From: an uncultured Gammaproteobacteria bacterium
GTDB taxonomy: Bacteria > Patescibacteriota > Microgenomatia > Levybacterales > UBA12049
Assembly: GCA_964424775.1 (NCBI GenBank)
Contig: CAYRJZ010000002.1
Location: 73,736-137,735, forward strand
Direction of reading: 5' to 3'
Length of the DNA: 64,000 nucleotides
Every line of letters begins with the position of its first letter. Position 1 is the first letter of the stretch. Made by a program: the position numbers and the translations under genes. Below are positions 55,263 to 58,075 of this stretch, one piece after another. The notes under the pieces were generated by a model. That model had not been told where the DNA came from. It made no database searches and saw nothing but the letters and a program-made list of their open reading frames with translations.

Positions 55263-56183
55263 TTATATTTTCTTGGGGAAGATAACAGAGAGGATCATCG
55301 AGATAGCGAGTGCTAGCATGATAATGCCGAAGGAGACTATTGATGATAGATGTATTCCAAAAATATCGATCAGCATTTTGCCTCCAATAAAGATCAGGAT
55401 AAATGCCAAACCTTTTTGAAGATGGTGAAATCTGTGAAGAACATCTTCAAGAAGGAAGAACAATGCACGAAGCCCCATAATCGCAAAAACATTTGAGGTG
55501 AAGATAATAAATGGATCTCTCGTTATTGCAAATGCTGCAGGAATTGAATCAATTGCAAAGACAATATCAGTTGCTTCGACCATAAGGACGATGAGAAAAA
55601 GCGTTGTAAAATACCATTTGCCATTTTCCCGAAGAACAAATTTGCCATTATGTTCAGATGTCGTGAAAGGAAGATACTTACGAGAAGCACGTACAACTTT
55701 ACTTTTTTCAAGATCGACATGTTCTTCTTTTTTATCCTTAAAAAGTTTGATACCCGTATACACTAATAATGCACCGAAAATGTATAACACCCAGTGGAAC
55801 TGACTAATAATAATTGATCCAATTCCAATAAAAAGTCCTCTGAAAAAAATTGCTCCGATAATTCCCCAGAAGAGAACTCGATGATGATATTTTTCTTCAA
55901 TTTTGAAAAAACTAAATATCAAGGCAATAACAAATAAATTATCAACGGAGAGCATTTTTTCTGTAACATATGCACTCATGAATTCAGCTGCTTTACTAGG
56001 TCCGAGAAGGAAAAAGAGAAGTATGCCGAAGACAAATGCTATTGCTATCCAGAAAAGTGACTGGAGAAGTGCTGATTTGGGAGCAACTCTATGGGCTCGT
56101 CTATTGAGAAATCCAAGATCTAGGATAAGAAATCCGACAACAACTGCACCAAAGATAAGAAGTAATATTGTTTGTATATCCAT
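55263..56183 (-). CDS. TerC-family integral membrane protein (Alx/MeeY/YkoY-like)
   Basis: SVDNLFVIALIFSFF, GIIGAIFFRGLFIG, 306 aa, about nine TM. Confidence 0.8.
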   Translation of the reverse strand: MDIQTILLLIFGAVVVGFLILDLGFLNRRAHRVAPKSALLQSLFWIAIAFVFGILLFFLLGPSKAAEFMSAYVTEKMLSVDNLFVIALIFSFFKIEEKYHHRVLFWGIIGAIFFRGLFIGIGSIIISQFHWVLYIFGALLVYTGIKLFKDKKEEHVDLEKSKVVRASRKYLPFTTSEHNGKFVLRENGKWYFTTLFLIVLMVEATDIVFAIDSIPAAFAITRDPFIIFTSNVFAIMGLRALFFLLEDVLHRFHHLQKGLAFILIFIGGKMLIDIFGIHLSSIVSFGIIMLALAISMILSVIFPKKI

Positions 56184-56360
56184 AATGTCTAATCGAAGTG
56201 AAAAGAAGAAGAAGTCTTACTAAAAAGACCTTCAACCACTTATTCACTGAGAATAAAGGCCAAAGGTCTGACTATGCGAGGTGCATTGATAGAACCAGGA
56301 ATTCCGAGATTGTTGATTCTACCTCCGGTATTGTTCCGGCAGCTACTCCCCCTTGGAGAA
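56184..56360 (-). promoter_or_regulatory. yybP-ykoY (Mn2+) riboswitch-like leader with a terminator-type expression platform upstream of the TerC gene
   Basis: The minus-strand RNA reads CCAAGGGGGAGUAGCUGCCGG...CCGGAGGUAG...GCAUAGUCAGACCUUUGG. The 5' GGGGAGUAGC block and the 3' GACCUUUGG block that closes P1 are the hallmark conserved segments of yybP-ykoY. Downstream, GGUCUU-UUUAGU-AAGACU followed by UCUUCUUCUUUU (plus-strand 56201-56233) looks like an intrinsic terminator. Confidence 0.55.
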
Positions 56361-56524
56361 TTTTATTTTACAAAATTTATGATGTTTTGCCAATAGCTCA
56401 AGGATACGAAGAATATAGTGATTGTTAATGCTTTACATTTGTAAGTAAACTTATCAATTTCTTACAATTTTCTTTATGAAGATTTGTTGTATTCGTTGGT
56501 ATTGTTGCGTAATAATAAACAATC

Positions 56525-58075
56525 ATGAGTTCATCTAATTTTAGAAATCATAATAATTATCAACAGTCTGAATATGAGAAATATTTGGAGAGTATTATAG
56601 ATACCATCCGGGAAGCTTTATTAATATTAGATAAAAATCTAAGAGTTGTTTCAGCTAATAAAACTTTTTATCAAAGATTTAAAGTCAATAAAAAAGATAC
56701 GGAAGGTATACTCGTTTATGAACTTGGAAATGGACAATGGAATATTCCTGATCTGAAAAAGCTTCTTGAAGATATACTCCCTTCACATAATCCGTTTAAT
56801 GGTTTTAGAGTTGAATATAACTTCCCAAAAATTGGAAGAAAGGTAATGTTGCTTAATGCTAGACAAATTAAAGAAAAAGGATCATGGCAAGATAGAGTCC
56901 TACTCGCAATTGAGGACATTACATTATTTGATAAAGATAGACAGGAACGTGACGCAGGTATAGAACGTGAGCGATCAATTTCAAAAGAACTAAAAAAAAG
57001 TGAGCAAAAATTTAAAACACTCGCAGACAATATTCCGAATCTGTGTTGGATGGCAGATGCTGATGGATATATCTATTGGTATAATTCCAGATGGTATGAA
57101 TATACAGGAAAAAAACCTGCGGAAATGGTAGGTTGGGGATGGAAATCTGTCCATGATCCTGCCATATTGCCAAAAGTACTTGAAAGATGGAAAAACTCTC
57201 TTAAAACTGGAGTACCATTTGAAATGATTTTTCCTCTAAAATCAAAAACAGGAGAATATAATCCATTTTTAACTCTCATTGTTCCGGTTCATGACGAAAA
57301 AGGGAAAGTTATTCAATGGTTTGGGACAAATACTAATGTTTCAAAACAAGTAGAGTTAGAAAGGCAAAAAGATGAATTTTTAGGCATTGCTTCTCATGAA
57401 TTAAAAACACCAGTTACAAGTATAAAAGCATATGGTCAAGTGCTTCAGACGATGTTCCAGAGAAAAGGGGATGTAAAGGCTGTAGAAGCACTTCAAAAGA
57501 TGGACTCTCAGATAAATAAACTAACAAATCTCATTGGTGATCTCTTAGATGTTACAAAAATTCAGTCAGGAAGATTAGAATTTCATAAAGAGTATTTTGA
57601 CTTTAATGAGTTAGTATATGAAATAATTGATGAAATGCAATTAACGACAGAAAGACACATTTTAACAAAAGATCTTGCACAGACAAAGAGTGTATATGGT
57701 GATAGAGAAAGAATTGGACAGGTGTTGATCAATCTCATTTCAAACGCAATTAAGTATTCACCTCATACAGATAAAATAATAATTACTACAAATAATGATA
57801 AAGGAAATGTGAAATTATGTGTTCAGGATTTTGGAGTAGGAATTCCAAAAGAAAAACAAGATAAAATTTTCGAGCAGTTTTTCAGAATAAGTGGGCCTCA
57901 CTATAATACTGTTCCTGGTTTGGGTTTGGGATTATATATTTCTAGCGAAATTATTAAAAGACAAAAAGGTAAAATCTGGGTTGAAAGTATTGTTGGAAAA
58001 GGTTCATCTTTTTGTTTTTCATTACCTATCAGTAAAAAAAAGACTGTACCTGAAAATAAAAATATACTTTCTTAG
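56525..58075 (+). CDS. Cytoplasmic PAS-domain sensor histidine kinase
   Basis: Two PAS-like regions, HisKA (LGIASHELKTPVTSIKAYGQVL), and HATPase_c (N-box NLISNAIKYS, DFGVGIP, GLGLGLYIS). Confidence 0.8.
   Translation: MSSSNFRNHNNYQQSEYEKYLESIIDTIREALLILDKNLRVVSANKTFYQRFKVNKKDTEGILVYELGNGQWNIPDLKKLLEDILPSHNPFNGFRVEYNFPKIGRKVMLLNARQIKEKGSWQDRVLLAIEDITLFDKDRQERDAGIERERSISKELKKSEQKFKTLADNIPNLCWMADADGYIYWYNSRWYEYTGKKPAEMVGWGWKSVHDPAILPKVLERWKNSLKTGVPFEMIFPLKSKTGEYNPFLTLIVPVHDEKGKVIQWFGTNTNVSKQVELERQKDEFLGIASHELKTPVTSIKAYGQVLQTMFQRKGDVKAVEALQKMDSQINKLTNLIGDLLDVTKIQSGRLEFHKEYFDFNELVYEIIDEMQLTTERHILTKDLAQTKSVYGDRERIGQVLINLISNAIKYSPHTDKIIITTNNDKGNVKLCVQDFGVGIPKEKQDKIFEQFFRISGPHYNTVPGLGLGLYISSEIIKRQKGKIWVESIVGKGSSFCFSLPISKKKTVPENKNILS

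Follow-up and report, generated by a model that had tools for sequence, protein, structure and literature searches.

A compact yybP-ykoY leader, probably a manganese-responsive ON switch, upstream of a TerC/Alx gene in a probable Levybacteria-like genome

The yybP-ykoY RNAs are a well-known riboswitch class, and a Mn2+ riboswitch in front of a TerC gene is textbook biology. Members of the family are marked by two helical legs joined by a four-way junction, by an A-minor interaction of the L1 loop with a G-C pair of P3.1, and by the switch helix P1.1; in the solved structures, the cross-helix A-minor contact is made by one of the conserved L1 adenosines (PMC12153347, PMC6754395). An invariant adenosine of L3 contacts Mn2+ via its N7 and is found in the sequences ACA48UACU of X. 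oryzae and UCA41AUUC of L. lactis (PMC6754395). In L. lactis, Mn2+-dependent stabilisation of P1.1 blocks strand invasion by the terminator and leads to transcriptional read-through (PMC11087558, PMC6754395). Manganese-related TerC proteins under riboswitch control are known from B. subtilis (MeeY/YkoY), E. coli (Alx) and Vibrio, the product of B. subtilis ykoY (MeeY) being a TerC protein too (PMC13598126, PMC11087558, PMC6754395). Our literature search found no paper joining yybP-ykoY or manganese riboswitches with Patescibacteria.

The locus described here lies in a 64-kb stretch of DNA (the window) with a GC content of 36%, in which a TerC gene and a divergent PAS histidine-kinase gene are separated by 340 nt (Table 1). 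The product of the former, assigned to the TerC family in the first-pass annotation, matches Pfam TerC with 184.5 bits and NCBIfam TIGR03718 R_switched_Alx with 372.9 bits, the cutoff being 246.4, and the name of the latter model itself records the link of the TerC/Alx subfamily with the yybP-ykoY riboswitch. Also present in the window are glmS and a dcw cluster that includes FtsA and FtsZ. The FtsZ shares 74-84% identity with proteins bearing the name Candidatus Levybacteria/Levyibacteriota, the latter being a phylum in the Microgenomates group of Patescibacteria, and the TerC of the window is 60-71% identical to the TerC proteins of several CPR-labelled MAGs. Since the best named matches of both proteins point to CPR/Levybacteria, the host is probably a CPR (Levybacteria-like) genome, an assignment made by such matches rather than by phylogeny.

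The leader of the TerC gene, which extends from about 56360 to 56184 on the minus strand, is almost certainly a member of the yybP-ykoY family, as the first-pass annotation had proposed; the best Rfam match, independent covariance models and covariation in all helices agree on this identity. The aptamer, CCAAGGGGGAGUAGCUGCCGGAACAAUACCGGAGGUAGAAUCAACAAUCUCGGAAUUCCUGGUUCUAUCAAUGCACCUCGCAUAGUCAGACCUUUGG (56356-56260, minus strand), is situated in the 5' leader directly upstream of TerC and on the same strand. Its two conserved blocks stand where they had initially been placed, the 5' block AAGGGGGAGUAGC at 56354-56342 and the 3' block GCAUAGUCAGACCUUUGG at 56277-56260, and the CCGG...CCGG helix noticed between them (56339-56325) is P2, all on the minus strand. 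The L1 internal loop (GGGAGUAG) lies in GGGGGAGUAGC at 56352-56342 (minus strand). Its GGGGAGUAG block is intact in the window and near-invariant across the 25-sequence alignment, and by analogy with the solved structures it may make the same three-dimensional A-minor contact. The C-G pair adjoining L3 in P3.1 (columns 61/96 of alignment A4) is invariant in 25/25 sequences, including the window, and would serve as the A-minor receptor. By comparison of the loop sequences, A56311 would be the equivalent of X. oryzae A48 and L. lactis A41. The L3 sequence of the window, ACAAUCU, differs from the commonest ACAUACU, and near-canonical loops are present in two relatives from the same lineage, L110 and L111 (ACAUACC and ACAUUCU); these two also carry A-U to G-U changes in P1.1. 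In the window, P2 consists of just four G-C pairs and has an A-A mismatch in the model-guided alignment, while P3.2 is only 2-3 bp long in 5/5 lineage copies (the window, L081, L006, L110 and L111). With P2 at 56339-56325 and a short P4 free of any U-run, the window does not show the features of the alx-type subclass. Upstream of the aptamer, a consensus scan found a sigma-70-like promoter match, TTGGCA-17 nt-TAAAAT, that agrees at 10/12 positions, and L081 has TTGGCA-17-TAGAAT at the equivalent position; the -10 hexamer TAAAAT, if functional, would put the transcript start a few nucleotides upstream of P1.1.

Table 1. Positions in the window of the aptamer, its expression platform and the neighbouring genes and signals
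Feature	Position	Strand	Basis or remark
Complete yybP-ykoY aptamer, 97 nt, four-way junction	56260..56356	-	Rfam, covariance models, MFE fold
P1.1 switch helix, 5' strand CCAAGGG	56350..56356	-	pairs with 56260-56266
P1.1 switch helix, 3' strand CCUUUGG	56260..56266	-	also part of terminator stem
L1 loop GGAGUAG, part of conserved GGGGAGUAG block	56343..56349	-	sequence and alignment
P2 hairpin CCGG-AACAAUA-CCGG	56325..56339	-	MFE fold and covariation
P3 arm	56288..56323	-	P3.1, L3 and P3.2
P3.1, GGUAGAAUCA/UGGUUCUAUC	within 56288..56323	-	10/10 P3.1 pairs formed
L3, ACAAUCU	56313-56307	-	sequence
L3 adenosine, position of the invariant Mn2+-contacting A	56311	-	ACA-AUCU (last A of ACA) compared with published L3 sequences
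P3.2 minimal stem GG-AAUU-CC, 2-bp stem with tetraloop	56305-56298	-	fold
P4 hairpin AUGC-ACCUC-GCAU	56274..56286	-	MFE fold and covariation
Intrinsic terminator hairpin AGACCUUUGGCCUUUAUUC-UCAGU-GAAUAAGUGGUUGAAGGUCU	56226..56269	-	RNAfold; predicted
U5 run closing the terminator	56222..56226	-	ends 38 nt before ATG
Promoter-like -35 hexamer TTGGCA	56388..56393	-	consensus scan; putative function
Promoter-like -10 hexamer TAAAAT	56365..56370	-	consensus scan; putative function
TerC start codon ATG	56183-56181	-	read from sequence
Putative regulated gene, 306-aa membrane protein of the TerC/Alx family (metal homeostasis)	55263..56183	-	Pfam and NCBIfam
76-aa ORF, GTG start	56198-56428	+	ORF listing
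PAS histidine-kinase gene	56525-58075	+	divergent neighbour of TerC gene

RF00080, the Rfam entry of this family, is the best Rfam match of the region: a permissive cmscan of positions 56100-56560 (a 461-nt search) against the 4227 families of the Rfam 15 copy aligned it to 56201-56363(-) with 25.7 bits and E 2.9e-5, which is below its gathering score of 45 bits. RF00080 was the sole family listed, and neither NiCo/czcD nor M-box gave a match with E < 1 in that search. At the gathering threshold, the whole 64-kb window has no match to any of the 4227 families. The RF00080 alignment is convincing in the 5' half of the leader and forced in the 3' half; in the RF00080 model P1.1 is not annotated as paired and P4 has a very long consensus loop. 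We dropped the gathering threshold as a decisive membership test, as the E. coli mntP control fails it too: this characterised riboswitch scores 41.6 bits with RF00080. Because such a validated member falls below the cutoff as well, the cutoff does not tell members from non-members here, and the sub-cutoff score of the window is not evidence against membership. None of the 18 textbook-looking metagenome copies reached the RF00080 cutoff (0/18), and those of them run in E-value mode scored 27-33 bits. The motif pair GGGGAGTAG-N50-80-AGACC has a single occurrence in the 64-kb window and appears in 0/100 dinucleotide-preserving shuffles.

The leader is also detected by covariance models that contain no sequence from the window's lineage. 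R1 was built from 6 of 25 GC-rich metagenome loci, aligned with a hand-checked structure; these loci had been returned by a scan whose pattern fixed the P1/L1 blocks only. It gives a single match in the 64-kb window, at 56256-56360(-), with 35.3 bits, every helix mapping, and an E-value of 4.5e-7 that, like those of all models of the R1, R2 and R3 type, is rough owing to a shortened calibration. The R1 search of E. coli mntP gave no match because the model is too narrow. Furthermore, its training loci had been found with blocks copied from the window, a circularity that was removed stepwise via R2 and R3. R2, made from 25 copies, matches E. coli mntP, which was absent from its training set, with 48.3 bits and therefore represents the validated family. 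It also detects leaders upstream of TerC in MAGs of Armatimonadota, Chloroflexota, Planctomycetaceae and Actinomycetota, at loci that were retrieved purely via TerC protein homology. These 10 TerC-homology loci and E. coli mntP, again without any window-lineage sequence, make up R3, which has one match in the window, 56256-56360(-), with 39.8 bits (rough E 7.7e-10), and matches 4/4 lineage relatives (L081, L006, L110 and L111) with 31.9-41.1 bits; in the 81 kb searched it gave no further match up to E = 10. Covariance-model matches lie upstream of TerC and on its strand in 14 loci from at least 5 groups.

The predicted fold agrees with these results. In the minimum free energy (MFE) structure of the 97-nt aptamer, P1, P2, P3 and P4 are all present, reproducing the four-way junction on which the first-pass annotation had proposed to be judged, and the aptamers of L081 and L006, taken by themselves, fold in the same way. 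The folding-energy z-score is -0.68 for the aptamer only and -3.9 for the full leader. In A1, a MAFFT alignment that combined AT-rich with GC-rich aptamers, the 3' strand of P3 was out of register, and L085 was misaligned in A2, so model-guided alignments were used for pair counts; in these, the window forms 33/37 consensus pairs. Since such alignments are fitted to the model structure and the counts lean towards it, the fairer comparison is with controls in which the 3' partners were slid: across the 25 sequences of the family, 94.1% of the cells are paired versus 27-49% in the slid controls, and in the lineage set of 5 sequences (the window and its four relatives, of which L110 and L111 belong to no training set) 91.4% versus 24-45%. 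Family-wide, 27/37 pairs change on both sides, with covariation in every helix and in 7/7 pairs of P2. Within the lineage, 8 pairs change on both sides, as opposed to at most 1 in any slid control, and these comprise 4/4 pairs of P4, 2 of P2 and 2 of P3.1, the last helix being 100% paired in the five copies. In P4, AUGC/GCAU is replaced by GCU/AGC, GCUA/UAGC or GC(A)U/A(A)GC. These compensatory changes indicate selection for pairing.

Downstream of the aptamer, the first-pass annotation correctly recognized a hairpin with a U-run but placed it too close to the gene, about 15 nt before the start codon, whereas the U-run ends 38 nt before the ATG. The predicted terminator hairpin has a folding energy of -22.4 kcal/mol with the platform alone (RNAfold). 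Its 5' strand begins at AGACC and contains the entire P1.1 3' strand CCUUUGG (56266-56260); because this strand is common to both, P1.1 and the terminator are mutually exclusive. The MFE of the full leader is -53.8 kcal/mol with the terminator and -46.3 kcal/mol with P1.1 enforced, a ligand-free gap of 7.5 kcal/mol. The same overlap is found in L081, L006, L110 and L111, as well as in many of the GC-rich metagenome copies. The terminators of L081 and L006 have energies of -21.6 kcal/mol (followed by U5) and -16.4 kcal/mol (U7), respectively, and the U-run at the equivalent place is U7 in L111 and UUUUAUAU in L110. A simple consensus terminator scan called nothing at the leader, most likely on account of a 1-nt bulge in the stem, whose top is AT-rich. 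Of the 7 bp in a second, weak hairpin at 56231-56212, just 2 are G-C pairs, and this hairpin does not overlap the aptamer; it is accompanied by a C/U-rich, C-interrupted tract (56214-56200) that ends ~17 nt before the ATG. As a terminator, this pair is a poor candidate, and the strong hairpin overlapping P1.1 is preferred. The same tract was considered as an anti-aptamer that would pair with L1 and the P1.1 5' strand. Its duplex energies are no better than those of shuffled sequences, a fraction of 0.08-0.79 of which did equally well or better, so the pairing with L1 that appears in MFE folds was put down to composition.

As this architecture is the one shown experimentally in L. lactis, we infer that the leader works as a complete Mn2+ transcriptional ON switch, high Mn2+ turning on TerC expression, and put the probability of this reading at roughly 85%. 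That Mn2+ is the ligand, that L1 docks on L3 and that the metal switches expression on rather than off would follow from the solved structures and biochemistry of the family. In such a scheme, the transcript would begin just upstream of 56356; in its four-way junction, P1.1-L1-P1.2-P2 would form one coaxial leg and P3.1-L3-P3.2-P4 the other. At high Mn2+, the L1 GGGGAGUAG block would dock on L3 ACAAUCU around the metal, and docking would stabilise the weak switch helix CCAAGGG/CCUUUGG. P1.1 would then keep its 3' strand, blocking the terminator (56269-56226 with U5), so that polymerase would read through and TerC would be made. At low Mn2+, P1.1 would open, the terminator stem, being the more stable, would capture its 3' strand, and transcription would end 38 nt upstream of the start codon.

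Several other explanations need to be weighed against a Mn2+-responsive transcriptional switch. It is improbable that the same fold serves another signal, the compact variant binding another divalent cation, or Mn2+ with much altered affinity; such a switch would signal something else than an excess of Mn2+, much as E. coli alx couples to alkaline pH. Such a change would fit the departure of L3 from the common ACAUACU, given that L3 has been proposed as an affinity tuner (PMC12153347), the truncation of P3.2 in 5/5 lineage copies, and the ability of the family to form stably docked states with Cd2+ too (PMC6754395). Yet neither the metal-sensing adenosine nor any part of the L1 block has been lost, L110 and L111 of the same lineage have a near-canonical L3, P2 is present, unlike in the alx type, and the gene belongs to the usual Mn-related TerC/Alx subfamily. 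A real aptamer acting mainly on translation or mRNA stability, as in E. coli mntP and alx, seems quite improbable. In its favour are the short U-run (5 U), the lack of a call in the consensus terminator scan and the 38 nt, including the weak hairpin at 56231-56212, between the U-run and the ATG. Against it, there is no Shine-Dalgarno (SD) sequence upstream of the ATG to sequester; moreover, a strong hairpin (-22.4 kcal/mol in the window) is followed by U5-U7 in 4/5 lineage copies and by UUUUAUAU in L110, and the strong SD of L006 stands apart, well downstream of the U7 terminator.

The leader might also be a decaying relic of a manganese riboswitch, with TerC constitutive or expressed by read-through. 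The patchy distribution among close TerC orthologs described below, the truncated P3.2 and the A-A mismatch in P2 of the window could be read in this way, but the compensatory changes of the lineage affect P2, P3.1 and all of P4, and conservation of L1, of the L3 core and of the P1.1/terminator overlap extends over five copies, with TerC proteins up to 22% different, which makes decay highly improbable. Finally, a chance resemblance in a region that instead encodes the 76-aa plus-strand ORF 56198-56428 can practically be dismissed and is already refuted. This ORF, with its GTG start, does exist, but it has no Pfam match, its homologous frame contains two stop codons in L081 (TerC 97% identical), and its counterpart in L006 has stops in all frames. 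Judged by this breakage in both relatives, the ORF is spurious, as had been suspected at the outset. Furthermore, 0 occurrences of the motif pair would be expected by chance, and Rfam and three covariance models converge on one site.

Among the TerC orthologs, the leader is present in the window, L081 (TerC 97% identical), L111 (82%), L110 (81%) and L006 (78%). It was not found upstream of L083 (81%) and L003 (78%), where the upstream sequence was read directly in addition to a model search, or of L112-L115 (78-79%), which were covered by a model search with default filters; for L082 (90%), it is not in the 141 nt available. An nhmmer search of the closest TerC orthologs in the genome collection found the leader in L006 only, and the CPR-labelled loci L004, L007-L009, L015-L017 and L019 yielded 0 copies; these searches used default filters, which very divergent copies could escape. 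In L006, a small zinc-ribbon ORF is situated between the switch and TerC. The absence of the leader upstream of several equally close TerC orthologs makes it dispensable. It is rather doubtful that the five AT-rich copies define a minimal yybP-ykoY subclass, apparently of CPR/Patescibacteria, that has a P3.2 of 2-3 bp and is missed by Rfam thresholds. If they did, this would be a case of natural riboswitch control of metal homeostasis in ultrasmall, host-dependent bacteria, and the patchiness among TerC orthologs that are 78-97% identical would stem from the switch having been gained or lost recently, possibly together with a change in its affinity for metal.

These results correct the annotation of the region, in which the leader is a regulatory RNA and the antisense ORF of 76 aa does not represent a gene. 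They also predict that manganese induces TerC in the organism from which the window comes. Of modest interest are the compactness of the aptamer, the probable CPR nature of its host and the fact that a search at the Rfam cutoff overlooks it. With the RF00080 gathering score of the Rfam 15 copy, compact copies of the terminator type go undetected, as does even E. coli mntP; automated surveys of riboswitches will therefore undercount the family. A natural ON switch from such a genome, compact (97 nt) and controlled by a ligand, could be useful, since inducible expression in Patescibacteria is a proposed application of riboswitches (PMC11665869).

The closest described systems are L. lactis yoaB and B. 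subtilis yybP/ykoY (RF00080, transcriptional ON switches). They have the same junction order, P1.1-L1-P1.2-P2-P3.1-L3-P3.2-P4, and share with the window the L1 GGGGAGUAG block and the metal-sensing adenosine of L3; as in the window, the P1.1 3' strand is part of the intrinsic terminator, so that a stabilised P1.1 leads to read-through. In contrast to them, the window has a compact copy of 97 nt, with P3.2 reduced to 2 bp and a tetraloop and P2 to 4 G-C pairs, it scores below the Rfam gathering cutoff, and its host is likely a CPR bacterium with 36% GC. Its L3, ACAAUCU, is between ACAUACU of X. oryzae and UCAAUUC of L. lactis. E. coli mntP, of the four-way-junction type, has the same aptamer architecture, is found by the same models and likewise falls below the RF00080 gathering score; it differs in controlling translation, via a long expression platform, and in serving the MntP exporter, whereas the window has a terminator overlapping P1.1 and a TerC/Alx gene. 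The E. coli alx leader (the pH-responsive element) belongs to the same riboswitch family and also precedes a gene for a TerC/Alx subfamily protein. Yet it is a three-way junction without P2, has its terminator inside P4, acts on translation and is restricted to Enterobacterales (PMC12153347), whereas the window has P2 and a classic 3' terminator.

Two elements lie in the segment that separates the terminator from the TerC start codon in the window: the hairpin AGGUCUU-UUUAGU-AAGACUU, which is weak, and a tract of sequence CUUCUUCUUCUUUUC. Both are kept in L081, the closest relative with the same leader. Complementarity between this tract (minus strand) and the conserved aptamer loop L1 was no better than that of shuffled sequences. 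No Shine-Dalgarno-like sequence was seen before the TerC start in the window (56184-56200, minus strand) or in the close orthologs L081, L110, L111, L083 and L003, and the TerC leaders of all of these are A/U-rich. TerC has a sensor kinase gene as its neighbour in the window, and in L083, a locus that has no riboswitch, a histidine kinase of the PAS/GAF type also lies near TerC.

Features of the window and of two related loci
Feature	Location	Strand	Remark
Weak hairpin and CUUCUUCUUCUUUUC tract	window 56200-56231	-	between terminator and ATG
PAS-PAS-HisKA-HATPase sensor kinase	window 56525-58075	+	neighbour transcribed divergently from TerC
62-aa gene call in JGI record	L110:917-1105	+	overlaps riboswitch aptamer (1017-1121)
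Zinc-ribbon-like ORF, 89 aa (CPKCRGVWLDRGELDKI)	L006:2668-2937	+	strong Shine-Dalgarno sequence

The gene call over the aptamer in L110 is a spurious ORF, as is the one at 56198-56428 of the window. In L006, the zinc-ribbon-like ORF stands between TerC (3001) and the upstream riboswitch with its terminator; this ORF, which had no match in an NCBIfam search, may be an additional Mn-regulated gene. The records of L001-L003, L005, L006, L010-L014 and L018 are titled 'uncultured Gammaproteobacteria bacterium'. Their TerC proteins are 62-78% identical to that of the Levybacteria-like window, and these MAGs are interleaved with CPR-labelled ones; the Gammaproteobacteria labels are probably wrong.

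MAGs of Nanopelagicales and other Actinomycetota (L035-L037, L054, L056) carry, about 100-200 nt upstream of TerC, a variant with GGGGAGUAC as L1 and GGGAGACC as the 3' block. It scores 28.8-37.3 bits with R2, the covariance model built from 25 yybP-ykoY copies, and represents a divergent subgroup within this family. The Rfam model RF00080, in the Rfam copy used, leaves the switch helix P1.1 unpaired and has in P4 a consensus 'loop' of ~70 nt. Tests of 18 metagenome copies of textbook appearance all fell short of its gathering score of 45 bits, for which L109:2462-2558, L084, L094 and L099 served as controls; the copies that were scored gave 27-33 bits. Use of this cutoff in automated annotation will therefore undercount the yybP-ykoY family: even the validated E. 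coli mntP riboswitch, at 41.6 bits, falls below it.
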